Sequence record: NC_052654.1
Source: Escherichia phage vB_EcoM-Ro121c4YLVW
Strand: one strand, 5' to 3'
Length of the DNA stretch: 64,000 bases
Below, in pieces: positions 1,987-51,470 of this stretch. The notes beneath the pieces were generated by a model that ran no database searches, had not been told where the DNA came from, and worked only from the letters and a program-made list of their open reading frames with translations. A program made the translations under genes and the position numbers. Position 1 is the stretch's first letter, and every line of letters begins with the position of its first letter.

Positions 1987-2865
1987 ATGAAAGGTATTAT
2001 TTTGGCTGGAGGAAGTGGAACCCGCCTTCATCCGGTAACACGCAGCGTGAGCAAGCAATTGCTCCCTGTGTATGACAAACCCATGATCTACTACCCTTTA
2101 TCGGTATTGATGTTGGCTGACATTAAGGATATCTTAATCATCACCACACCAGGCGATCAGGAAGACTTTGAGTATCTTCTCGGAGATGGGTCTATGTTTG
2201 GGATAAAACTCACTTACGCAATCCAATCCGAGCCACGAGGTCTTGCGGACGCTTTCATCATCGGTAAAGATTTTATCGGAGAAGACTCTGTTGCTCTTAT
2301 TTTAGGTGACAACCTATTCTTCGGACAAAGCTTTGGTAAACTACTGATTAACGCCAGTGAGATGGTAGATGTTTGGGGCGGAGCTTGTATCTTCGGGTAT
2401 TTGGTGAAAGATCCTGAACGATTCGGTGTGGTTGAATTTGGGAGTAATCGTCAAGCTATTTCTATTGAAGAGAAACCTGAAAATCCTAAATCAGATTACG
2501 CTGTCACAGGTTTGTATTTCTATGATAACTCTGTTGTTCAACGTGCATTAGAAGTAACCCCTTCCGCGCGTGGAGAACTGGAGATCACAGATATCAATCG
2601 CAGCTACCTCGAAGACAGGAAGTTACAAGTGGAAGTTCTCGGACGAGGATTTACTTGGCTTGACACAGGAACACACGCCAGTCTGATGGAAGCTGGTCAA
2701 TTCGTGCAGACTATTGAGAACCGGCAAGGATTGAAGATTGCGTGCCTGGAAGAAATTGCTTTCAAAAAAGGGTGGATTTCTTTAGAGACTTTGGTGTATC
2801 ATGGAAACTCACTGAAGAAAACAGAATACGGGCAATACCTACTCAAATTAGCGGAGAGAAAATGA
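1987..2865 (+). CDS. rfbA: glucose-1-phosphate thymidylyltransferase
   Basis: [16 protein letters not shown]...[17 protein letters not shown]-terminus typical of RmlA. Confidence 0.85.
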
Positions 2866-3428
2866 AAGTAGAAAAAACAAAAATTGAAGGTGCGGTAATT
2901 ATCAAACCAGACGTTTATAAAGATGATCGTGGTTTCTTTTTAGAAACATATAATGAACAAAAATACGAAGATATTATTGGTAGACAAACTTTCGTTCAAG
3001 ATAACATGTCTAAATCAAACTTCGGTGTTTTGCGAGGAATGCACTTTCAAACAAATAATCCGCAAGGTAAGCTTGTTCGTTGTGTAAGTGGGGAAGTATT
3101 GGATTTCGCTGTAGACCTACGTAAAGATAGTCCTACTTACGGTGCTTGGGACGGTGTTGTTCTTCGTGCACGACACCATACACAGTTCTGGCTTCCACCT
3201 GGTTTGGCACATGGTTTTATAGTGTTGAGTATGGATGCTATCTTCGAATACAAATGCACAACTCCATACGACCCTTCCAGCGAACAAAGTTTACGTTGGG
3301 ATGATCCTGATATAGGGATTGATTGGGGCTTCGATATGATTTTTGACGAAGATTTTAAACCTATCTTATCAACAAAAGATGCAATGGCTAAGTCTTTTCA
3401 ACAGCTACGTAGCGAGGGTGTATGCTAA
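2862..3428 (+). CDS. rfbC: dTDP-4-dehydrorhamnose 3,5-epimerase
   Basis: RmlC-like cupin with RGMHFQ motif; ATGA overlap with rfbA; start chosen at internal ATG after RBS. Confidence 0.8.
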
Positions 3429-4686: not shown

Positions 4687-5187
4687 ATGGCTAAAGTAGT
4701 AGATGAGTTTGATATGCTACGAGTCGATGAAGGACTGAAGCTTACTGTTTATCAAGACCATCTTGGTTATTGGACAGTCGGCATAGGACACCTTCTGACT
4801 AAAATAAAAGATAAAGCAAAGGCTATTCAAATCTTAGATAATCTCCTTGGTCGTAAGACCAATGGAGTTATCACAGAAAAAGAAGCCCGTCAAATCTTTG
4901 CTGACGATGTTGCAAAAGTGAAGAGAGACATAAAAAACAGTGCTATCTTATCACCAATCTATGATAAGGTGAGTGATACTCGTAAATTGGGAATAATCAA
5001 CATGGTTTTCCAGTTGGGGTTAAAAGGTGCTGAAGGGTTTAAAAATAGCTTGACTTTAATCAGCAATGCATATTATACTCAAGCAGGTAAAAACATGCGT
5101 AAAAGCCGATGGTATAGCCAGACGCCAAACCGTGCTGAACGAGTAATTAAAGTTCTGACTTCTGGAACTTTAGATGCTTACAACTAA
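4687..5187 (+). CDS. T4-type lysozyme (endolysin)
   Basis: DEGLKLTVYQD...GYWTVGIGHLLTK...NMVFQLG...AKSRWYSQTPNRAERV closely parallels T4 gene e lysozyme. Confidence 0.9.
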   Translation: MAKVVDEFDMLRVDEGLKLTVYQDHLGYWTVGIGHLLTKIKDKAKAIQILDNLLGRKTNGVITEKEARQIFADDVAKVKRDIKNSAILSPIYDKVSDTRKLGIINMVFQLGLKGAEGFKNSLTLISNAYYTQAGKNMRKSRWYSQTPNRAERVIKVLTSGTLDAYN

Positions 5188-5190
5188 TAA

Positions 5191-5206
5191 AGGGGCTTCG
5201 GCCCCT
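5191..5206 (+). other. GC hairpin (tetraloop TTCG) between lysozyme and phoH; possible attenuator/stabiliser
   Basis: aggggcttcggcccct, no strong T-run. Confidence 0.3.
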
Positions 5207-5224
5207 TCTAAAAGGAGTGCTACT

Positions 5225-5983
5225 ATGGGAAATAAAACCGCAGCTAAAACACAACGGCAGAAACTGGCTAATTCAGCAAAGATTGAAAGCCGTTATGCAG
5301 CAAAAGCGGTAGGTAATGACGATTACCGTTTAGATGAATTTATGCCTGAAGGGGACCAAAATAAGATTGTTCAAAGCATGATTTGGAATGATCTGACTGT
5401 TGTAAATGCTCCGGCAGGGACTGGTAAAACCTCTGTTGCTTTATGGAAAGCTTTGCAGATGCTTCGTTCAGGAGACTTCCGTAAACTACTTTTTATCAAG
5501 AACCCTACTGAAGTCGGAGATGACCAGATTGGTTTCTTGTCTGGGGATAAAACAGATAAACTAGCAGCACACTATGAATCTACAAAACGTATTTTCCAGC
5601 AATTCATGACAGCCAACAAATTGGAAAACGATATTGGATCAGGTAAGATCGAATTGAATATTCCTAACTATTTGTTGGGGGCTACCCTGGATAATACAAT
5701 CGTCATTATTGACGAAGCACAACTCATGTCAACAGAAACACTTAAACTTCTTATTGAACGTGCAGGTATTAATACGCATGTTATTGTATTAGGCGATGTT
5801 CGCCAGACATATGCAATTAAAAAACGTAGCAATGGTCTGCATCAAATTTTGGAACTTTTATATCCAGAAAATGAAGAAGGTGTTCGTGAGCCAATTGTAG
5901 ATTTTATTGGATACGTTGAACTGACAACGGACGATAATAAACGTGGACGTTTGTCTAAACTGATTACTGAAGTGTTTATTTAA
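5225..5983 (+). CDS. phoH: PhoH-like ATPase
   Basis: Walker A APAGTGKTS, Walker B IIDEAQ; start chosen at ATG after AAAGGAG (alternative 5174). Confidence 0.8.
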   Translation: MGNKTAAKTQRQKLANSAKIESRYAAKAVGNDDYRLDEFMPEGDQNKIVQSMIWNDLTVVNAPAGTGKTSVALWKALQMLRSGDFRKLLFIKNPTEVGDDQIGFLSGDKTDKLAAHYESTKRIFQQFMTANKLENDIGSGKIELNIPNYLLGATLDNTIVIIDEAQLMSTETLKLLIERAGINTHVIVLGDVRQTYAIKKRSNGLHQILELLYPENEEGVREPIVDFIGYVELTTDDNKRGRLSKLITEVFI

Positions 5984-34089: not shown

Positions 34090-35640
34090 TCTCCTCTCAT
34101 CGTTAGCCATCTTTCATGGCAATCATCAATCACCAACATCATACGATCAATCTTAGGGAATTACAATCGAATTATCATAGGGGATTCCTATCAATTATCC
34201 CATATATACCGATTATTTTTGACACCCCACTCTTGTATAAAAAGTAACCCAAAATATCTACGGGGAGAGATTATTTCGGGACACCCTGTTTCATAGCAAT
34301 CATGGCAAGAATATCTAATAGAATCAATATGATATGGCAAAAATCATGGCGCATACGTAAGAAGTGCTTAACGCGAATTTTCGGGCCGTCAGGTCCACGC
34401 AGCGACAATTCCCAAATATCATGCGAATGAGAATAATTATCATTCGTATTCAATGACTTATGCAAGGCTCATGCCAACATAGCGACAAGGTGGGCCACTT
34501 GATTATAAATCACACAAACACTTATTTATCAATGGTTTGGCAACTTCATCATATGACGGAACAATGTCAACTGATCCCGCTCATGACAAGCAGACTATTA
34601 TTTATATGAGAATGATTATTATTTAAACGTTTATTAACATATAAACTAAAATAAATCAAGAATTTTCTGATTTTATTTACGTTTAAGAGAAGGTGCTCAA
34701 CATATCGCTACGCGATAGTATTCGCCCCCAAAAGATTAGCCTTTATTTTCTTGTATGTTTATACACTGCGTGTACATCTATGTGCACACTATGCAACCTG
34801 TCGCTATTCGCTCATGTTGCTACGTGCAATTATTCATCTTGCTAATGATTTCATATTGTAACTATTACAATGACTATTGTTATTGCGCTAATGTTATGAT
34901 CTTGGTAATTACATATAATGCTAATAATAAGCCAGCGCAATAAGTGTAAGCGTCATTACGCTTGCAATTATTGCAAGCTACGCAGTAACAAGAAATAACC
35001 GTCACCGATGGTTATGATTGTTGGGGTGTAGTTGGCTTATTATTAGCTCGCTATGTGTCCGGCATAGCGTGCTAATGATGACTCTGTGAATGATTCGTTT
35101 TGTAATGATTTCATTCAGGCACTATTTTGCTAATAGTTATTATTTTAATGGTTTCGTTTGTTATTGTTCGTTAGTTGGTTGTTTTGTCGTGTTATCGTTA
35201 TCTTGCTTAGTATTCATCATGGTTTGATTGTTTGTCATTATCAATCATCTTGCTATTATTCCTTTGATTATGATTAGTTTGCTTATTGTTTTAGGTTGTT
35301 GGTTGGTTAGTTGTTGCGAACTATTATCAACATTATAGTTATGCACTTATATTGCATAGATAAACATGGATAGATGATAATGGTTATCATTGCACCAGAA
35401 AGGAGGTAAAAGGGTGTTTTTGATGGTTTGTTGTTGGTTGTTGATCGATTTTAACCGCTTTAAATGGCTCTCTAACAGCCTGTTACCCTGGGAGGTATGG
35501 TTATTCATTTAATGGTTGATTAGCTTGATACCACTATTTATTCAGTTTTGTTCTGTGTCGGTTTTCCATAGGCGGAATCTATCAACATTGTTCGGGCAAA
35601 AAGAAAGGGCGCTTGGTGCGCCCCTTGTTTTGTTGTCGAT
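34090..35640. other. about 1.5 kb non-coding region with strand-skewed composition, palindromes and Fur-box-like motifs
   Basis: No ATG ORF with RBS; T/G-rich top strand; palindrome at 34936-34975; motifs at 34421-34441 and 34601-34620. Confidence 0.5.
35606..35630. terminator. bidirectional terminator
   Basis: agggcgcttggtgcgccc hairpin flanked by A-run upstream and T-run downstream. Confidence 0.55.
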
Positions 35641-43917: not shown

Positions 43918-44283
43918 TTATAAATCTTTTTTACGTTTTACATCGCTTGCATGACTGTATACAGTGATCCCATTGTCACGGCAAAAACGGGAAAGATACG
44001 CGCCGCGTGAAAATTCCTTGCCCTCAAGGTTGATAACCTTGCTAAATTCTTCCAGGGCGACGGTATCAAAATGATCACCATAGCCATATTGAAACGGAAC
44101 GTTAACCACCTCGATCAGTTTACCGCCGATCTCAACGTCAACCATTAAAGAAAAATATGTGTTACCGTAGGACTGTTGAAACCAGCGACGGGCGCTAATA
44201 TGCACCGCCTCAATGCTGGATAATTCAATTTTAGCCGTGTTAGCCAGGGTAGCATAAGCGGAAACATTGATATTAATAGCCAT
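43918..44283 (-). CDS. hypothetical protein
   Basis: ORF track 121 aa. Confidence 0.5.
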   Translation of the reverse strand: MAININVSAYATLANTAKIELSSIEAVHISARRWFQQSYGNTYFSLMVDVEIGGKLIEVVNVPFQYGYGDHFDTVALEEFSKVINLEGKEFSRGAYLSRFCRDNGITVYSHASDVKRKKDL

Positions 44284-44380
44284 GGTGTCACTCTCTCTTT
44301 TTGGTTAGTGGGAAGTATTCCCGATAAAAGTTATTATGCTTATACTATCACTCATTGTCAATAGTATAAGACTAAAACTT

Positions 44381-44560
44381 TTAACGATAATCATTATAGG
44401 CTTTATTGACCTGGCGAATGTAACATTCGAAAGCAAGATCAATGTATTCGTATTCACGCACATAATCACCATAGGTCACTACATACATTTTTAAAGTTTC
44501 CTCATAAGCCAGGAGGATCGAATCTAAACCTATAATCTCAGTTTTTGCAATGATAGCCAT
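44381..44560 (-). CDS. 59-aa hypothetical protein
   Basis: Promoter unit upstream; below ORF-track cutoff. Confidence 0.4.
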   Translation of the reverse strand: MAIIAKTEIIGLDSILLAYEETLKMYVVTYGDYVREYEYIDLAFECYIRQVNKAYNDYR

Positions 44561-44580
44561 GATGTTAACCTTTTATTGTT

Positions 44581-44637
44581 GGCGGCACCATTGCCGCCCT
44601 ACGTGATAAACTATACCAGAAGTTTAAACAGTGTCAA
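44581..44637 (-). promoter_or_regulatory. array promoter unit
   Basis: ggcggcaccattgccgccctacgtgataaacta...tgtcaa. Confidence 0.6.
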
Positions 44638-44643
44638 CCGTTT

Positions 44644-45006
44644 TTATTCGTAAATTTTACCGCTTTCGGCCCATACCATAACGCGGCGCATACTATCCCA
44701 AGTGTTTTGATCCAGGTTTAAGCCGTGCAACTCTTCGGTACTTCCCAGACCAGGTACCGCTTTGTTGTAAGTCGCATATAAGCGCCCTTGATACTCATAC
44801 GCCAGAGTAAGATCCTTTTGAATCATCTTTTTAAGCATAGCATTAAGCATCATATTAGCGGCATGTTGATCACGTTTTAGCGGTAACATGTCAATAAGGG
44901 CGCGATAAGCTGAAACATGAATATCAACCGTTTCACGTGGTAAATTTTTCATATCATTGCGGAAAGATACCAGATTAAACATGATAGTATTGATTTGCTT
45001 GCTCAT
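44644..45006 (-). CDS. hypothetical protein
   Basis: ORF track 120 aa. Confidence 0.5.
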   Translation of the reverse strand: MSKQINTIMFNLVSFRNDMKNLPRETVDIHVSAYRALIDMLPLKRDQHAANMMLNAMLKKMIQKDLTLAYEYQGRLYATYNKAVPGLGSTEELHGLNLDQNTWDSMRRVMVWAESGKIYE

Positions 45007-45027
45007 TGTGTTACCCTTTTTTGTTTT

Positions 45028-45088
45028 GGCTGGGAAGTATTCCGCCGCCCTATGTGATACATCTTATCAGATTAAAAAACGTTGTCAA
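45028..45088 (-). promoter_or_regulatory. array promoter unit
   Basis: ggctgggaagtattccgccgccctatgtgatacatctta...tgtcaa. Confidence 0.6.
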
Positions 45089-45096
45089 GAATATTT

Positions 45097-45192
45097 TTAG
45101 AAAATAATAGCCGCTACTACAATCCAAAATGGAACGGCTAGAATGATAGCGTTAATCGTTCCAACCGTCAAGCTATTTTCTTTATTAATCAT
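45097..45192 (-). CDS. 31-aa hydrophobic membrane peptide
   Basis: Promoter unit upstream; below ORF-track cutoff. Confidence 0.35.
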   Translation of the reverse strand: MINKENSLTVGTINAIILAVPFWIVVAAIIF

Positions 45193-45219
45193 TGTAAGCC
45201 TCTTGCATAATTTCACTAT

Positions 45220-45278
45220 GAGCGGCACCATTGCCGCCCTACGTGGTAAATATTATGCCAGTGGCGGCGATATGTCAA
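45220..45278 (-). promoter_or_regulatory. array promoter unit
   Basis: gagcggcaccattgccgccctacgtggtaaatatta...tgtcaa. Confidence 0.6.
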
Positions 45279-45841
45279 AGACTATTTTCAAAGTTTTCTA
45301 GTGCGATCCTTTTTTCTTCCTCTGTCGGCTGATAATCAGGAAAAGCATCAACACACAACAACGGCGGGATCTCTTCGTACTCTTCCTCTTCCGTTGTCTC
45401 CTCGTCTTCCTCCTGGGCTATGGCTGCAATTTTGGCTAATTTTCTTTCAGCTTGAATCAATTTACCATCAAGTACGTTTTTTGCCATGTTGTAAGCGGTC
45501 CAGGTGATGCGCTTACTTTCCAGGGCCTGATCGAGCGCCGCTATCTTGCTGGGGTATTCATCCAGGACACGAAAAGCCGGATCAACTTTGTACAAAGGAT
45601 TATCTTTCGCGCCGTCGCTCGCATCTTCCGCACTGGATAAATCAGCGTTACCATTTGCCAGCCAGCCAGGGCGCACATAACGCGCTTTTACGTTGCCGTT
45701 ACTACGTGCTAATCTGTTACCTATTTGCTCACCACTATATCCCGTGGATTCATCGATAAGATGATCGGGAATGATGCGCGGATCATCTGCTTCATGTTTT
45801 ACCCAAGACTGGATCACATATTCGCGGCCCATATTAACCAC
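45275..45841 (-). CDS. hypothetical protein with acidic C-terminal region
   Basis: ORF track 188 aa. Confidence 0.5.
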   Translation of the reverse strand: MVNMGREYVIQSWVKHEADDPRIIPDHLIDESTGYSGEQIGNRLARSNGNVKARYVRPGWLANGNADLSSAEDASDGAKDNPLYKVDPAFRVLDEYPSKIAALDQALESKRITWTAYNMAKNVLDGKLIQAERKLAKIAAIAQEEDEETTEEEEYEEIPPLLCVDAFPDYQPTEEEKRIALENFENSL

Positions 45842-46091
45842 CTTTTTTCAACAATTGGCATACTTTAAAAAGACTTGCTGAATCCTTGCAAGGGTAGAAA
45901 GATGTACGATAATCACGTACGCCAACCTTGCGGATCTCGATGTTCTCGCATGTTGTTTGATCAAAGATATTTATTTCATCACGCCCCCTTATATAAACAT
46001 AGTGGGGATGTATTAACGCATATTTTGCTAATCTGTAAAAAGCGTTATCTTTGAACGCGATCACGTGACCTTTTAATTTGATGTAAAACAT
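45834..46091 (-). CDS. hypothetical protein
   Basis: ORF track 85 aa; promoter unit at 46109-46164. Confidence 0.45.
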   Translation of the reverse strand: MFYIKLKGHVIAFKDNAFYRLAKYALIHPHYVYIRGRDEINIFDQTTCENIEIRKVGVRDYRTSFYPCKDSASLFKVCQLLKKGG

Positions 46092-46167
46092 TCTACCACC
46101 TTACAAATAGCGGGAACTATTCCCGCTTTATGTAACATATTAACAAATTATTCGTTAATGTCAAGCC

Positions 46168-46440
46168 TTAAAGCAAAAACGCTACATCTTGCGCTTTTAG
46201 TGTAGTATCAACCATTTTCGGGCTTTTATAATCAACAAAGCGCGCGGTTTTTTCAATAGCGAAACCGAGATAATCTTGCTTGTTGAAATTACATTCTTTC
46301 TTAAATGTTTCCCGTGCAATAGTGATCGCTGCGTCCAGGGATAAACGCCCGTCAATATTGATATTAGCGAAAGATCCGCCACCGCTCATAGGTTTACCAG
46401 TGGTGCCAGCTACGATCATTGTTGCGCTATATGATGCCAT
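46168..46440 (-). CDS. hypothetical protein
   Basis: ORF track 90 aa. Confidence 0.45.
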   Translation of the reverse strand: MASYSATMIVAGTTGKPMSGGGSFANINIDGRLSLDAAITIARETFKKECNFNKQDYLGFAIEKTARFVDYKSPKMVDTTLKAQDVAFLL

Positions 46441-46464
46441 GATGATAATCTCTCTTCTGTTGTG

Positions 46465-46525
46465 AGCGGTGGACCATTCCGCCGCCCTATGTGATACATC
46501 TTATCAGGTTGTTGTTTGTTGTCAA
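46465..46525 (-). promoter_or_regulatory. array promoter unit
   Basis: gagcggtggaccattccgccgccctatgtgatacatctta...tgtcaa. Confidence 0.6.
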
Positions 46526-46531
46526 TACTTT

Positions 46532-46729
46532 TTATTCTATTCCTGCAATTTGATTAACGCGCTTGCATTTTGTAGCGTGCTGGTCTTCTGTAATGACTCC
46601 CATTTCTAACAGGGAATCAATGAAAGATAAAACCGTTTCATGATCATCCTGGGGGTGACTGAACTCAGTAAAACCGTTTACCACTACGTTGATTTGTCCA
46701 GCTTTCGCCACAATGTGCAATGTTGCCAT
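46532..46729 (-). CDS. hypothetical small protein
   Basis: Start at internal ATG (MATLHIVAK...). Confidence 0.45.
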   Translation of the reverse strand: MATLHIVAKAGQINVVVNGFTEFSHPQDDHETVLSFIDSLLEMGVITEDQHATKCKRVNQIAGIE

Positions 46730-46748
46730 GATTTTAACTCCAAATAAT

Positions 46749-46807
46749 GAGCGGCACCATTGCCGCCCTACGTGGTAAATATTATGCCGCCACCTGGCGA
46801 ACGTCAA
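46749..46807 (-). promoter_or_regulatory. array promoter unit (last copy)
   Basis: gagcggcaccattgccgccctacgtggtaaatatta...cgtcaa. Confidence 0.6.
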
Positions 46808-46916
46808 TCACTTTTTCAATCTTTTTTATTTTCTTTTTGCTTGCTATATATAAAAGAAAGGGCTATCATCTTTCTACCGCGCCAACCAGGGCGCACATCA
46901 AAGAAAGGGCGATACC

Positions 46917-47120
46917 ATGACAACTACATTACACCTTATGCACTCATTGGGCTGGCAAGGCGGCACGGTGCACCAGGTAGCAAGTGCAACGGGCTTAAAG
47001 GTTGAAACCGTTCTCAACCTGGGCGATCATAAGGTGGAAGAGATAGATCATTTTGATACGTTCGCAAATGGTTATCTATGGGCTTGCAGTGGCGGCGGGG
47101 CGATATGTATTTTTGGTTAG
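46917..47120 (+). CDS. hypothetical small protein (only + strand gene within the leftward block)
   Basis: ORF track 67 aa; weak RBS. Confidence 0.35.
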   Translation: MTTTLHLMHSLGWQGGTVHQVASATGLKVETVLNLGDHKVEEIDHFDTFANGYLWACSGGGAICIFG

Positions 47121-47154
47121 GTGTCCTATCCTGGCAAGAAAACAAAAAATAATC

Positions 47155-47183
47155 TTGACAAGCCCAGGGATCGGGCTTATACT
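47155..47183 (+). promoter_or_regulatory. sigma70-type promoter with no ORF downstream
   Basis: TTGACA-N17-TATACT; palindromic spacer. Confidence 0.5.
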
Positions 47184-47189
47184 GTTTTA

Positions 47190-47290
47190 CATACAGAAGA
47201 GGAAGCGCCACCCCACGGCGTAAAGGCGGGGCTAACATACCAGGGGGCACTGGTTGGAAGGTTGATCGCCGGTAGGCTGGGCGCTATATA
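47190..47290 (+). ncRNA. candidate small non-coding RNA
   Basis: GC-rich segment with local hairpins just downstream of the promoter, ends near an A/T-rich stretch; no ORF. Confidence 0.25.
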
Positions 47291-47537
47291 TTTGTAAAGA
47301 AATGTAAAGATAAAATAATCGCTTGCTTTCCTGGCTGGATCTGTTATTCTTATTACATGGCGAGGGGACACGGGAGCGCGAGACAAACACCACCCCTGCG
47401 CGTCATTCTCTAAATGAGAATGATTATCATTTACCTTATCAAATAAGAATCAATCTCATTTATAAACCTAAATGCGAATCATTATCATTTGCATTTCCAT
47501 ATGAGAACTCTTCTCATTCCCATCTGCATAAATTTTT

Positions 47538-47740
47538 GTAAACTTTAAATTTTGCTTTTGTACTTTCATTTTTGTAAAAGCAAAAAAACTTTAAATACTG
47601 TGGGCGCGCAAAATTTTTAAAATTTTCCTTGACTTTTGAGTTTTGTTTTGTATCTGACATTTTAAGATAATTTTCCTAAACTTTAAATTTTGGTTTTCAA
47701 CTTTCACTTTTGTAAATTCTTAAAAAGTTTAAATAATTTG
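47538..47740. repeat. two about 63-bp direct repeats rich in A-tracts plus short TTTGAGATAA repeats (iteron-like)
   Basis: Copies at about 47538-47600 and 47677-47740. Confidence 0.55.
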
Positions 47741-47958
47741 AGGGATTTTTGAGATAATGGATAGTGGGAATTTGAGATAACCTTTAATCTTATTGGCAGA
47801 CCTTCAGGAAGCCACTTAGATCGAATCCTAGCAATGCAAACTGAAAAAGACAAGTGTTTGTATAGGACAAAATAATAGGCTCTCTACGGTGCTGTAGGAG
47901 CCTTATTTCTGTGCTACAAAGTGACACCTTTGTTCTAAAAATGAAAAAAGTTAAAATA

Positions 47959-48501
47959 TCACAAATATCGTCTTTGCGGTATTTTGTCTGGGAAAAGTAT
48001 TTCGATCAGTTTATTATGATATTTGCCTAAAAGATTCTGCCCTTTCCAGGTGGCAGGGTTTAGCACCCCTGGTTCATACATCCCCATTCCAATTCCGTAA
48101 ACCTTATCGTAGGGGCTTGCTTCAACAAACGTTTTGTATTGGTAAAGGTGTAAGTCTGCATACAAATCTGGATTCTGTACATATTTCAAGCATAAACCTC
48201 GCATAACAATACGCTCACGGTTCTCTTCCCACATATCATTATTAAAACCAGATACCGCTCGACCCATACGTTTGTAGTATGCTTGTTTCCTCTCGTTGTC
48301 ACGTATAGTCGAGTGATCAAGGATAGCTGCTGCAATCGCATGATCCTTGAACAGCAAAGCCTTACGCCACATCATATATTGCTCAACACAACAGAAAGTC
48401 TCATTGTAACCTGGTTCAGTTTCTGTAAAGGGTGCAATATACCAATTACTAAACACATCTTTATGTGAAAAGAAGAATACATATTCATCAGTTATTCTCA
48501 T
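47959..48501 (-). CDS. NADAR (YbiA-like) domain protein
   Basis: FFFS...FSNW, CVEQYMMWRKA, KRMGR, FVEASPYDKVYGIG match the NADAR signature. Confidence 0.7.
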   Translation of the reverse strand: MRITDEYVFFFSHKDVFSNWYIAPFTETEPGYNETFCCVEQYMMWRKALLFKDHAIAAAILDHSTIRDNERKQAYYKRMGRAVSGFNNDMWEENRERIVMRGLCLKYVQNPDLYADLHLYQYKTFVEASPYDKVYGIGMGMYEPGVLNPATWKGQNLLGKYHNKLIEILFPDKIPQRRYL

Positions 48502-48689: not shown

Positions 48690-49055
48690 TTAATCCATCC
48701 ACCAGTAGCCATAAACTGCGTCTGCGTCGATGAGTTTGTGTTTGTTGTTCCGCATGTAGTCTAAGATAAGTAGACGTTTATTGTATCTGGAGAGATTATG
48801 ACCCTCTTTTCCGCCATAGTCAAAATATTTTGCAAGATCTTTACACTCAAACAAAATCAGTTCGGGAGTTTCTTCACACTGGTCTGTCTGGTACACTTGA
48901 CGAATGATCATGTATACATCGTCGTCTTCCGCTAAATGCTCTACTGGTCCACATCCAGCAGGAACAAATTCATAGTCCCATCTGATCAGATGTTTCTCTA
49001 CTGCTTCAAAGAAATCCATCCTTTCGTTGCGCATAATTTGAACGTCAACTAACAT
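48690..49055 (-). CDS. hypothetical protein
   Basis: ORF track 121 aa. Confidence 0.45.
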   Translation of the reverse strand: MLVDVQIMRNERMDFFEAVEKHLIRWDYEFVPAGCGPVEHLAEDDDVYMIIRQVYQTDQCEETPELILFECKDLAKYFDYGGKEGHNLSRYNKRLLILDYMRNNKHKLIDADAVYGYWWMD

Positions 49056-50251
49056 GTTTCCTCCTGTAATGTTCCACCATAAAGTTTATAAATGTTTTGT
49101 ATTGAGGCCATGCAAGATAACTCTACTGTTTCTGTGTAGCCATCTGGCATAGAATATTTGCTCACTGCTTCCGTGTGAAGGACACGCTTACAACGCTTTT
49201 CTGCATCTTTGCATTGCTTCACAGTAGGGAAGTGCCACACTTGGACCTGTTTCATAGTAAACACATTACGACTATTTTGTTTTTTGATACGGCGATCACT
49301 ATTATTGGCAATTCCAAATTTCAAAGCACAGAGAATACCTTGTTCATCATGAATGTGGTTAATGTAACATTGTTGTTGTGTCTGGTTAGCACATTGCGGA
49401 CAACCAGTGCCATGATTTAACAAACCACTGGCACGTCCTATTTGTACCCCATGTTTCTTACATCCATATTTAAACTTACCTAATCTTACAGACGGTTTCC
49501 CGATCCAACCTACCCAGATATACCCTTTCCTTTCTACTGCCTTTTTTACCCTATAGGTAATCTGTGCTTCTGTGTAATGACAGTTAGTTGCACAACGGCA
49601 AGGAATCTTCCCTTGTTTAAGGTCATTCCCTGCGACATAAAACTTACCATCACACACCCCAGCTTGCACATACTCATCGTGAGAGCAGGCAGGACACTCT
49701 ACACACCATAAAGAATCGCGGCCTCGTTTTTTATCTGTTTTAGTGAAGATTGTACCCTCTTTAAACTTTCCTGTATTAATGAAGTCTTGTATGTGCTGAT
49801 CGTCTGGAAGTATTTTAGAATTCCTAGATCTTTTGTTACCGCATTTAGGACAACCACTACCACCCTTAAGATTATGAAATGTTAATGTTCGCCATTCCCC
49901 GTGCTCAGGACAAAGGTTGATCATCTTTGTATGTACACCTATAAACTCTCCATTAATGCCTAAAATCTTGATTCCCTTAGCTTCAGCAATAGGCTTACAT
50001 TCCGAAAGGTAATAATCTAGGTTTTTACTGTTGTCTTGTCTTGCTTTCTCATTTTTGCACCTAGGGCAACCAGACTTACCACGTTTAAAATTGGCAAATG
50101 TGGATGTTCTCCACTCCCCATGATTAGGGCAGAAGTTGATCATCTTCGTGTGCACACCTTTAAATGGCTCTACAATCCCTATAATCTCATATCCTTTAGC
50201 TTCCGCTATTGGTTTACATTCTCCTATATACTGTTCTAACGTCTTCGCCAT
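49049..50251 (-). CDS. multi-zinc-ribbon protein with internal tandem duplication; possible nuclease-like C-terminal domain
   Basis: Two about 80-aa repeats ending CPxHGEWRT..F.N.K.G.SGCPxC; further CxxC pairs; C-terminal FGIANNSDRRIKKQNS region. Confidence 0.5.
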   Translation of the reverse strand: MAKTLEQYIGECKPIAEAKGYEIIGIVEPFKGVHTKMINFCPNHGEWRTSTFANFKRGKSGCPRCKNEKARQDNSKNLDYYLSECKPIAEAKGIKILGINGEFIGVHTKMINLCPEHGEWRTLTFHNLKGGSGCPKCGNKRSRNSKILPDDQHIQDFINTGKFKEGTIFTKTDKKRGRDSLWCVECPACSHDEYVQAGVCDGKFYVAGNDLKQGKIPCRCATNCHYTEAQITYRVKKAVERKGYIWVGWIGKPSVRLGKFKYGCKKHGVQIGRASGLLNHGTGCPQCANQTQQQCYINHIHDEQGILCALKFGIANNSDRRIKKQNSRNVFTMKQVQVWHFPTVKQCKDAEKRCKRVLHTEAVSKYSMPDGYTETVELSCMASIQNIYKLYGGTLQEETC

Positions 50252-50293
50252 CTTTATCTATCCTCTCTCCCTATAATCTGAAGTCAATATAAC

Positions 50294-50314
50294 AAAACCC
50301 GCCGAAGCGGGTTT
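50294..50314 (-). terminator. Rho-independent terminator (minus strand)
   Basis: cccgccgaagcggg hairpin then T-run on minus strand. Confidence 0.55.
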
Positions 50315-50330
50315 AGTTATTTGTGCTGTA

Positions 50331-51470
50331 TCAGAACACGCTACCCAGTGTAGTGGAACGTTGTGTTACAGGCTCCAGCACCACTCGCAGAGTGTTTCCT
50401 GGTGTAGTGCTCATCACCAGAATCTTACCACCTTCAATCAGATCACAAGTTAGACCATCAGCAGTTGCACACAGATCAATATGTGGATCGCCATCTTCAT
50501 CCAGGATAACATAACTGTTGGTTTCCATTGCTTCCACTTCATCATCTTTCAAACTTTGCAGATAGATGTTCAGGGAACAAGCACCCGACAAAAACTTAGT
50601 AGGGGTGAAGTCGTGCCAGTTATTGATCCAATTCACCTTCAGGGTTTTGCCATTAGCTACGATAGAAGCCACATTCCATTTAGCATCGTTGCCTAAAGAA
50701 ATACCCATCATTTCCAGACATTCTTTAAAAGTCATTTTTGGATAGAAATTCAATTCTTCTACAATACCTTGAATAACATCAAAAGACAACTCTGTACTAA
50801 CATCCCATAAACGTTGGAAGTTATCTACGTGCTTTTTATTTACCAAGTTCTTATCCAAGTAATCTAACATAGTTTCACTAGACAGTTTATCGTAATTGAA
50901 ACTGTAATAGATACGACTAGGACGGTTTACAAAATATTCCGAGATATAACCACTATTTTTAGTGAGGATGTAAAGTTTATTCCCACTTCCTGTTCCATCC
51001 AACAAGGTCAACAGTGCTTCCTGATCTTCTTTCTTAGCGTACACTTTATCAAATTCGTCAAATAAAACAACAGCACGATCTGTAATTTTACTCATAAATT
51101 CTAAGAAGCCAGCATCTGTGTAAGGCTGTGTAACCAAAATGGTTGGAATACCTAAACCTTCTGTGGACATTAGAGACATGCTAATCAGTTTAGCTAACAT
51201 CGTCTTACCACTGCCCTTTGTCCCTGTCAGTAACACCCCAGTATTTTTACCTTCTTTACTACGACGAGCAAATGTTTTAATAACATGTGCGGCGCGGTCT
51301 TTAGTTTCCCCATAAAGAGTGTTCGGAAGAGAGAAACTTTCGCCACGCACTAAAGAGTAGTTACCGTGCGGATCGCAGTTGACAACCCAAACTCCAGCAG
51401 GAAGTTTATTAGCTTCAACGCCATATTCCTTATTTACAACCGCTACATCTCCAAAAATAGTGTATTTCAT
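50331..51470 (-). CDS. AAA+ ATPase
   Basis: Walker A GTKGSGKT, Walker B VVLFDEFD; 379 aa. Confidence 0.65.
   Translation of the reverse strand: MKYTIFGDVAVVNKEYGVEANKLPAGVWVVNCDPHGNYSLVRGESFSLPNTLYGETKDRAAHVIKTFARRSKEGKNTGVLLTGTKGSGKTMLAKLISMSLMSTEGLGIPTILVTQPYTDAGFLEFMSKITDRAVVLFDEFDKVYAKKEDQEALLTLLDGTGSGNKLYILTKNSGYISEYFVNRPSRIYYSFNYDKLSSETMLDYLDKNLVNKKHVDNFQRLWDVSTELSFDVIQGIVEELNFYPKMTFKECLEMMGISLGNDAKWNVASIVANGKTLKVNWINNWHDFTPTKFLSGACSLNIYLQSLKDDEVEAMETNSYVILDEDGDPHIDLCATADGLTCDLIEGGKILVMSTTPGNTLRVVLEPVTQRSTTLGSVF

Follow-up and report, generated by a model that had tools for sequence, protein, structure and literature searches.

In the 64,000-nucleotide stretch of Escherichia phage vB_EcoM-Ro121c4YLVW analyzed here (NC_052654.1; hereafter the window), a plus-strand open reading frame (ORF) at 46917-47120 and a minus-strand ORF at 47959-48501 converge on a gap that holds short ORFs only. 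This gap is probably a composite of two separable noncoding elements: a gene for a small RNA, named RNA1 here, and after it a cis-acting DNA module consisting of a second promoter, a GC-rich leader, an array of palindromes resembling the sites of the host regulator Fur, and AT-rich direct repeats. An original prediction, made from the letters of the window, had described a convergent noncoding gap in which a good sigma-70 promoter points into a GC-rich segment and a candidate small RNA. All of these points were borne out, and the small RNA is now strongly backed by conservation and covariation. The source phage is a Phapecoctavirus, i.e., a phAPEC8-like E. coli myovirus of the Stephanstirmvirinae. 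The region is 95-99% identical in 58 Phapecoctavirus genomes, the closest being that of vB_Ec-G1 (98.5%), and the records of these relatives leave the gap without annotation or with scattered "hypothetical protein" calls.

RNA1 is a conserved and covarying RNA

The sigma-70 promoter facing the gap, P1 (TTGACA-N17-TATACT, 47155-47183, plus strand), is the top plus-strand match in 6 kb in a consensus scan (11/12), and its position is kept across distant phages; TTGnnn-N16-18-TAnnnT was found 5' of RNA1 in the great majority of real loci examined. The GC content is 55-62% at 47160-47280, compared with 20-30% at 47400-47760. When the gap was compared by sensitive BLAST with 50,697 phage records, matches were obtained in 332. 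The segment at about 47186-47431 retains 70-75% nucleotide identity across the genera Seunavirus, Certrevirus, Mydovirus, Henunavirus, Phapecoctavirus, and Justusliebigvirus, whose flanking genes cannot be aligned. The matched phages include the Vequintavirinae 4MG, GE_vB_MG, CR3, CR9, PBES 02, BIS47, KpS8, and pEa_SNUABM_55 and all Stephanstirmvirinae. Conservation sets in a few bases from the start site predicted by the -10 element.

A covariance model was built from a MAFFT alignment of 27 RNA1 sequences (alignment A1). It recovered 59 copies (49 distinct) at 56-105 bits, from loci in IMG/VR, metagenomes, and GenBank phages, and these copies occur in Vequintavirinae, Stephanstirmvirinae, and Aeromonas phages of the genus Plateaulakevirus. 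The copy described here (47195-47283, plus strand, about 90 nt) scores 93.7 bits and is the sole one in the window, and chance matches to the 18-nt search pattern reach 23 bits or less. Among 185,579 bacterial and archaeal genomes the pattern matched 11 times, 10 of them by chance; the real match lies on a 4-kb phage-like contig in a metagenome-assembled genome.

The predicted fold opens with a short hairpin, P1 (CGCC/GGCG, 47206-09 with 47217-20), closed by the 7-nt loop ACCCCAC. Loop nucleotides 47212-14 would pair with a G-run at 47229-31 to form an H-type pseudoknot, which is followed by the bulged hairpin P3 (47232-33/47259-60, 47236-37/47255-56, and 47240-43/47250-53). At the 3' side of this long hairpin is the tail AAGGTTGATCGCCGGTAG (47258-47275; equal to AAGGTnGATCGCCGGTAG), invariant across members and, as AAGGUnGAUCGCCGGUAG, apparently unpaired. 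In A1, 91.1% of the cells at paired positions are paired, 8 of the 13 pairs have changes on both sides, and none of 500 shuffles equaled the observed values; when the pairing partners were slid along the alignment, only 23-45% of cells remained paired. Alignment A2, with 59 sequences, was fitted to the covariance model and is therefore biased toward the structure; it gives 92.1% paired cells, 9/15 compensated pairs, and 0/500 shuffles, and over both alignments the slid controls bring pairing down to 23-55%. RNA1 thus carries compensatory pairs beyond shuffled and slid controls. The pseudoknot covaries as CCC/GGG, CCAA/TTGG, CCAG/CTGG, and CCAT/ATGG; hairpin P1 is wholly swapped in an Aeromonas phage (GGAC/GTCT); and the tip of P3 is a GAAA, GCAA, or UUCG tetraloop in different lineages. 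As read from the alignments, such substitution patterns are hallmarks of RNA structure and not of DNA structure.

Insertions and deletions of 1, 4, 5, and 8 nt occur within the conserved block, those of 4-8 nt in the tip of P3. Together with the paired substitutions, they rule out that the block is coding. No Rfam 15 model matched the window or seven homologous loci at gathering thresholds, and nothing overlapped 47190-47405 at E ≤ 10; the literature searches found no description of RNA1 or of the motifs of the module and no transcriptomics. The comparative evidence thus establishes RNA1 as a new, discrete family of predicted phage small RNAs under strong purifying selection.

The 17-nt spacer of promoter P1 is itself a GC-rich inverted repeat (AAGCCC...GGGCTT, 47160-47178). 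Among 38 pattern-matching sequences, 30 have a spacer whose fold is at least as stable as -3 kcal/mol, with stem sequences that differ between lineages. Such spacer hairpins, with GCAA or GAAA loops, were seen in most enterobacterial lineages and not in the Aeromonas phages. The hairpin could be a terminator joined to the promoter, or it could respond to supercoiling.

RNA1 and the module occur apart

The most divergent RNA1 members are those of the Aeromonas phages 2L372X, 2L372D, and 4L372D (Plateaulakevirus). In 2L372X, RNA1 lies alone in a 310-bp gap between minus-strand genes, with TTGCTT-N17-TATAAT upstream and, about 30 nt past its tail, an 8-bp GC-rich hairpin followed by AATTGTTTG, i.e., an intrinsic terminator. 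The linker between tail and terminator is AU-rich in these phages, and termination would fall about 50 nt past the tail. An equivalent terminator is present in 4L372D, which also has an insertion of about 55 nt between hairpin P1 and the pseudoknot strand. RNA1 of 2L372X is separated by 2 kb, with several small minus-strand genes in between, from a unit of promoter, leader, boxes, and AT-rich repeats (positions 2821-3000 and 4880-5260 of the locus, L091). Because RNA1 has its own promoter and its own terminator in the Aeromonas phages, it appears to be a discrete small RNA gene. Of the two marks looked for in a trans-acting small RNA, the promoter of its own is present at nearly all loci and the terminator of its own in the Aeromonas homologs only.

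The converse arrangement is found in rV5 proper, which by covariance search and alignment is without RNA1 and has the downstream module. At the rV5 locus examined (rV5_ev158, L004, about 1400-1640), a second unit of promoter, element-2-like leader, and box takes the place of RNA1, which makes the unit a tandem duplicate, and the boxes are 136 and 29 bp apart.

The downstream module

Immediately 3' of RNA1 is an A/U-rich segment, TTTGTAAAGAAATGTAAAGA (47291-47310, plus strand), which contains two copies of TGTAAAGA, carries TGTAAAG twice at a distance of 10 bp, and is conserved in the alignments. It would be either a single-stranded 3' extension of RNA1 or an UP element of the second promoter, P2 (plus strand, 47323-47350; -35 TTGCTT at 47323-28, -10 TATTCT at 47345-50), whose predicted start is near 47356. 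Only the hexamers of P2 are conserved, and its spacer varies across genera. The consensus scan does not list P2, the nearest promoter-like site that it gives being upstream at 47292-47319 (plus strand), so that conservation is the sole ground on which P2 is proposed. The predicted transcript would begin with element 2 (47356-47406, plus strand), a GC-rich leader of about 50 nt with the conserved blocks CATGGCGAGGGG...GAGACAAACACC...CTGCGCGTCAT that is kept in all genera, including rV5. Element 2 includes GAGACAAWCACC, the GC content at 47340-47400 is 55%, and its single-sequence fold has z = -2.57.

Element 2 is followed by four palindromic boxes of 19 bp at an exact 29-bp period (47413-31, 47442-60, 47471-89, and 47500-18). 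The original prediction had noted two Fur-box-like palindromes here; their Fur-type character holds, their number is four, and their coordinates are those given here. In a repeat search, the array (47410-47518) came out as three 51-nt copies that overlap and are offset by 29 bp; they break down into these four boxes. The consensus of 42 boxes from 13 genomes is AATGAGAATGATTCTCATT, a 7-1-7 unit TGAGAAT-n-ATTCTCA. The Fur box of E. coli is the 19-bp GATAATGATAATCATTATC, and the 7-1-7 unit of Baichoo and Helmann is TGATAAT-n-ATTATCA. Each half of the phage unit thus departs from the Fur unit at a single position; box 1 is identical to the Fur unit at 13/14 positions, and against the E. coli 19-mer box 1 scores 16/19 and box 3 14/19. 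GAGAAT/ATTCTC hexamers are also present in the Fur sites of aerobactin and fhuA. At the variable half-site position, 30 of the 42 boxes have G and 10 the canonical Fur T, whereas the other half has C in 28 and A in 12. The combinations G/C (19), G/A (11), T/C (7), and T/A (1) demonstrate that the halves vary independently, GAGAAT and GATAAT half-sites being interchangeable. Independent variation is expected of a dimeric protein site on DNA, and for this reason RNA hairpins were rejected as an account of the boxes.

In Enterococcus faecalis, the exact core TGAGAATGATTCTCA is listed as a Fur box, that of the iron transporter operon EF3082-85; a fur mutant derepresses this operon 12-18 fold (PMC6056675). 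Within the window, seven sites match the box consensus at 15/19 or more, and all are in the gap or in one other noncoding locus at 34.4-35.4 kb. Since the motif is common to three phage groups unrelated to each other, whose hosts are all Gammaproteobacteria, host Fur would be the most economical binder. The phage boxes differ from known Fur boxes in that they are predicted sites in a virulent phage and are not followed by an iron gene, in that they form a strict 29-bp array that does not overlap a promoter, and in the preference for G over T at half-site position 4. They are 55-160 nt downstream of the predicted P2 start, and a weak 9/12 promoter-like site is the only one that they overlap. 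We lean slightly toward occupancy by Fur; a phage protein of the same specificity may take its place.

When the array was compared by BLAST with 5,426 complete E. coli genomes, three weak matches were found, all non-significant (E = 4). One of them joins box 3 to the promoter of fhuE, annotated as the ferric-coprogen receptor, which we take to be Fur-regulated. Another is in a noncoding gap of a prophage. In the E. coli H22 chromosome (L092, 2505-2535), an 860-bp noncoding gap of a prophage-like region opens with CTAAATGATAATGAAAATCATTTGCATTT, a 16/19 Fur box resembling those of the phages. The second noncoding locus of the window is part of a region of about 1.5 kb without a long ORF (34100-35640), which lies between minus-strand genes at a switch of GC and AT skew and has boxes at 34426 (17/19), 34605 (16/19), and 35373 (15/19).

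Beyond the boxes, the GC content falls in an AT-rich region with direct repeats (47531-47740), to 20-22% in its right two-thirds, with up to 32% near 47550-47640. The two direct repeats of about 63 bp originally described are present and are longer, 72 nt with 82% identity (47531-47602 and 47669-47740), and part of a third copy lies in between (47620-47652). They had also been thought to consist of phased A/T tracts; this was not upheld, and no intrinsic curvature is indicated, because the autocorrelation of AAA/TTT in 47520-47760 has no peak at lags of 10-11 or 21, where a period of about 10.5 bp would appear. The short TTTGAGATAA repeats of the same description were recovered by the repeat search as two plus-strand copies 23 bp apart (47748-47780; starts at 47748 and 47771), and phage 4MG has TTTTTGAGATAT repeats at the equivalent place. 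A hairpin reported near 47880-47915 is likewise real, but is placed at 47878-47902 and belongs to the terminator of the minus-strand gene. Read on the minus strand, it is followed by UAUUAUUUUGU and constitutes the intrinsic terminator of the convergent operon (47868-47902, fold z = -4.45), annotated as an ARNold terminator in the phAPEC8 record. It may also stop plus-strand transcripts.

The order of promoter, leader, boxes at a period of 28-29 bp, and three repeats of about 70 bp recurs in 4MG, CR3, CR9, pEa55, rV5, and KP13-26; the box spacing of 28-29 bp is found in CR3, CR9, 4MG, BIS47, and rV5. Three direct repeats each, of 57-71 nt with periods of 63-78 bp, are located 3' of the boxes in 4MG, CR3, pEa_SNUABM_55, and rV5, and the repeats of a set are alike within a genome and divergent between genera. 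In the Aeromonas phage, the module follows a small plus-strand ORF and has a promoter, a GC-rich leader, two boxes 28 bp apart, and an AT-rich stretch that carries a GATCGAGACC motif also present in CR3. At the level of alignment and motif, phages as far apart as those of Escherichia and Aeromonas share the architecture of the predicted module and its box motif. Because the Aeromonas phage keeps the module 2 kb away from RNA1, the module appears to be old and separable from it. Plasmid relatives of the gap were not found. The single match in PLSDB, to the rV5-type segment of element 2 and boxes, is CP057073.1 (137,565 bp), entered there as an E. coli plasmid of the non-mobilizable type and most likely the genome of an rV5-like phage.

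A model for the gap and the explanations that compete with it

In the model that we propose, host RNA polymerase with sigma-70 would start at promoter P1 and produce an RNA of about 90 nt (47195-47283). Its short hairpin, with the loop paired to the downstream G-run, would stack on the longer hairpin as a scaffold presenting the tail. RNA1 would act in trans through this tail, which would make contact with a conserved partner molecule (a target RNA or a protein). P2 would transcribe the GC-rich leader and proceed into four operators of the Fur-box type, which host Fur or a phage protein of like specificity would occupy. Next would come the AT-rich and short repeats, and the module would end at the terminator shared with the convergent operon. 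The module could serve as a transcription-activated replication origin of the T7, T4, or lambda type or as an iron-responsive control region. The origin is our leading reading and a tentative one, and an iron- or Fur-linked regulatory region is its main alternative.

The origin reading is suggested by tandem promoters facing an array of protein sites and AT-rich repeats, by repeats that evolve in concert, and by a position kept across subfamilies. The four boxes at their 29-bp period, beside a region of 20-30% GC with repeats of about 70 bp, form an array of the iteron type. The primary origin of T7 has the tandem promoters phi1.1A and phi1.1B followed by an AT-rich region, and oriF and oriG of T4 combine a promoter with an unwinding element and an R-loop primer. 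The gap resembles both in its two tandem rightward promoters leading into 20-30% GC, and rV5-type phages carry a T7 gp4-like primase-helicase (PMC3606486). It differs from both in that the promoters are of the sigma-70 host type and that the box array and the three repeats of about 70 bp are interposed. It resembles lambda-type origins in its regular array, in which four 19-bp sites with dyad symmetry border directly on an AT-rich stretch; unlike these origins, it is intergenic and not inside an initiator gene, no O-like initiator was found nearby, and the sites match the host regulator Fur. RNA1 in turn shares a sigma-70 promoter and a compact pseudoknotted fold with known phage small RNAs and pseudoknots (the T4 gene 32 leader, HK022 put, and Hfq-type small RNAs, the last consisting of promoter, structured body, and intrinsic terminator), and in the Aeromonas homologs also an intrinsic terminator, but is without a sequence or model match in Rfam and without an adjacent regulated ORF.

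Several observations weigh against parts of this model. Promoters, start sites, and RNA ends are all predicted from sequence. In the window there is no terminator between RNA1 and P2, and transcripts from promoter P1 may read on through P2. The minimum-free-energy fold of RNA1 as a single sequence is not unusually stable (z = -1.77) and prefers AGCGCC/GGCGCT with CGGCG/CGCCG, and RNAalifold likewise picks the invariant CGGCG/CGCCG helix, whose CGCCG comes from the tail; a conformational switch between the folds is possible. We rejected CGGCG/CGCCG as the main fold of RNA1, since its pairs show no covariation and are disrupted in the Aeromonas homolog in which hairpin P1 is compensated. The invariance of the tail is in part a matter of ascertainment, since the collection scans used the tail pattern, yet the tail is also kept in loci found by BLAST. 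No complement to the tail was found in the 64-kb window, and it matched the E. coli rrnH operon (16S, 23S, and 5S rRNA and three tRNAs) no better than shuffled queries did. For element 2, RNAalifold yields no consensus helix, and a closing helix proposed by hand is 83% paired with one covarying pair. No DnaA boxes (TTWTNCACA) or integration host factor (IHF) sites occur in 46800-48000, which does not suit a DnaA-dependent origin, and no initiator gene is recognizable next to the gap, i.e., among the small ORF, the NADAR, HNH/CapR, and AAA ATPase genes. Similar boxes occur at the 34.4-35.4 kb locus and also in T5, in an injection-stop region that is not regarded as an origin. As for Fur, no promoter of an iron-regulated gene lies under the boxes and no gene follows in the plus direction, the fhuE match at E = 4 is suggestive and not significant, and two uncultured relatives (L064 and L039) have different palindromes at the box position, which could point to a phage-encoded binder.

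The original prediction had taken the gap for a replication origin with a noncoding transcript as primer or regulator. The layout is indeed origin-like and conserved; it lacks DnaA and IHF sites, an adjacent initiator, and plasmid relatives, GATC clustering in the window is absent or unremarkable, and the literature searched contains no published mapping of origins in these phages. The transcript is backed as a structured RNA, and its role as a primer is weakened by RNA1 of 2L372X, which stands alone, terminated, 2 kb from the module. The fuller form of that proposal, in which the whole gap is an origin and RNA1 a primer or R-loop RNA processed at the AT-rich repeats (cf. ColE1 RNA II, T7 phi1.1A/B, and T4 oriF/oriG), is one that we regard as unlikely. 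It would account for tandem promoters aimed at a repeated region of 20-30% GC, for a G-rich RNA with positive GC skew, and for repeats that, like iterons, show concerted evolution inside a genome under a constant architecture; the gp4-like primase-helicase (PMC3606486) and the unmapped origin of these phages also leave room for it. It is at odds with the termination of Aeromonas RNA1 about 50 nt past the tail and 2 kb from the module, with the presence of the module in rV5 without RNA1, and with the absence of DnaA and IHF boxes, and a covarying pseudoknot with an invariant tail would be superfluous for simple priming. If the module were instead purely regulatory, host Fur or a repressor made by the phage would use the boxes as operators over P2 or nearby weak promoters, or the boxes would be transcriptional roadblocks or a sink for Fur; iron status would thereby bear on iron uptake by the host or on gene expression of the phage, and the AT-rich repeats would be promoter- or UP-like sites or sites for nucleoid proteins. 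The fit of the boxes to Fur specificity and their reuse at the second noncoding locus and in T5-like phages speak for this explanation; furthermore, boxes 2 and 3 overlap the weak promoter-like site at 47459-47488, and where element 2 ends, a hairpin resembling a terminator is formed by box 1 and the CATTCTC that precedes it. There is, however, no downstream plus-strand protein-coding gene to control, the boxes start about 55 nt or more past the P2 start and do not cover its hexamers, and the architecture of three 70-bp repeats has no obvious regulatory rationale. We judge a purely regulatory gap to be rather improbable.

Two further explanations concern RNA1 itself. As a cis-acting leader, it would control read-through into the module and not act in trans, either by modifying RNA polymerase as the antiterminator put of HK022 does or by sensing in the manner of a riboswitch. 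Its position directly 3' of a promoter, the lack of a terminator before P2 in the enterobacterial phages, and the mutually exclusive pairing in most members of the 3' strand of hairpin P1 (CGGCG) with the tail (CGCCG) are compatible with such a role. The same alternative helix is, as noted above, without covariation and lost in the Aeromonas homolog, where hairpin P1 is compensated instead; no expression platform or downstream plus-strand ORF, as expected of a riboswitch, is present; and the Aeromonas copy, directly followed by a terminator, has nothing to read into. We consider a leader very unlikely. That the conservation reflects unannotated small proteins is hardly credible. ORFs of 33-78 amino acids exist on both strands, and phAPEC8_00257 and EcG1_191 are annotated over parts of the gap; most records annotate nothing there, the AT-rich ORF sits inside nonconserved repeats, and the conserved block has indels of 1, 4, 5, and 8 nt and substitutions that are paired and not concentrated at third codon positions.

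Genes and features around the gap

The left edge of the gap is formed by the small plus-strand ORF (46917-47120, 67 amino acids), which matches PHROG 19316, of unknown function, has no Pfam match, and contains a helix-turn-helix-looking motif, GGTVHQVASATGLKVETVLNL. It is kept in the Stephanstirmvirinae only; in Vequintavirinae an unrelated plus-strand ORF, or none, occupies the same place. Because of this absence outside the Stephanstirmvirinae, the ORF is unsupported as a general binder of the boxes despite its motif. Compared with vB_Ec-G1, phAPEC8, phiWec181, and others, the present phage has a 28-bp deletion at 47090-47100, between the G-rich direct repeats GGCGGCGGGG and GCGCGGGGCG, and a further 3-bp deletion near the start of the ORF. 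These deletions shorten the ORF to 67 amino acids from the 88 of its relatives, in which it runs through promoter P1.

The right edge is the minus-strand gene of a NADAR-domain protein (47959-48501; Pfam PF08719, E = 3e-35), a family linked in the literature to the reversal of DarT ADP-ribosylation. Farther right (49049-51470) are genes for an HNH/CapR-domain endonuclease and for an AAA ATPase weakly similar to clamp loaders and DnaC. To the left of the gap, the minus strand of 44000-46810 carries a run of small genes, most with a near-consensus sigma-70 promoter in an upstream spacer of 80-100 bp (e.g., 44637, 44361, 45088, 45278, 46164, and 46525), a pattern typical of an early-gene array. 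A tRNA and tmRNA search of the 64-kb window found none. A genome terminus at the gap was also considered and rejected: a few records open nearby, no more than the arbitrary opening of circular assemblies would give.

Relation to T5 and implications

The same boxes, including a perfect AAATGAGAATGATTCTCATTT, are found in T5-like phages in the conserved noncoding "Repeat Region 3", where the left terminal repeat ends. In the T5-like phage HASG4 (L090, 1190-1370 and 1697-1717), at least five Fur-type palindromes stand beside TGTCGGATTTGCACA repeats and paired DnaA boxes. The palindromes palE-palJ of the T5 Repeat Region 3 and injection stop signal have been described with no function assigned and with Fur unmentioned (Davison, bioRxiv 10.1101/866236). 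The Fur-type boxes of T5-like phages appear to correspond to palE-palJ, and no link between T5 palindromes and Fur was found in the literature searched. The two regions are alike in that palindromes of the AAATGAGAATGATTCTCATTT type lie in a large conserved noncoding region full of direct repeats. They differ in that the T5 region has paired DnaA boxes and TGTCGGATTTGCACA repeats, is located at a terminal-repeat boundary, and is without a homolog of RNA1 or element 2.

Taken jointly, these findings raise a possibility that we put forward with considerable doubt: RNA1 would be a new class of structured RNA in three lineages of large, virulent myoviruses infecting Enterobacterales and Aeromonas, whose tail captures a conserved host or phage factor, and large virulent phages from three groups or more (rV5/phAPEC8-like, Plateaulakevirus, and T5-like) would recruit host Fur to box arrays in essential noncoding regions. 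The rV5-like and phAPEC8-like phages are therapy candidates of broad host range, with an unmapped origin and noncoding repertoire, and RNA1, absent from Rfam, is among the most conserved sequences common to their subfamilies. If the module is an origin, it would define an element for engineering these phages or for building replicons. The box arrays suggest that the iron regulation of the host is tied to the biology of virulent phages, a tie for which the literature searched gave no precedent, and they connect the gap to the T5 region, whose injection-stop palindromes have been without explanation for decades. If the joint proposal is true, capture by the RNA1 tail may serve, e.g., host takeover or an anti-defense function, iron status would be linked to phage replication or DNA entry, and the boxes would provide a first molecular handle on the injection-stop palindromes of T5.

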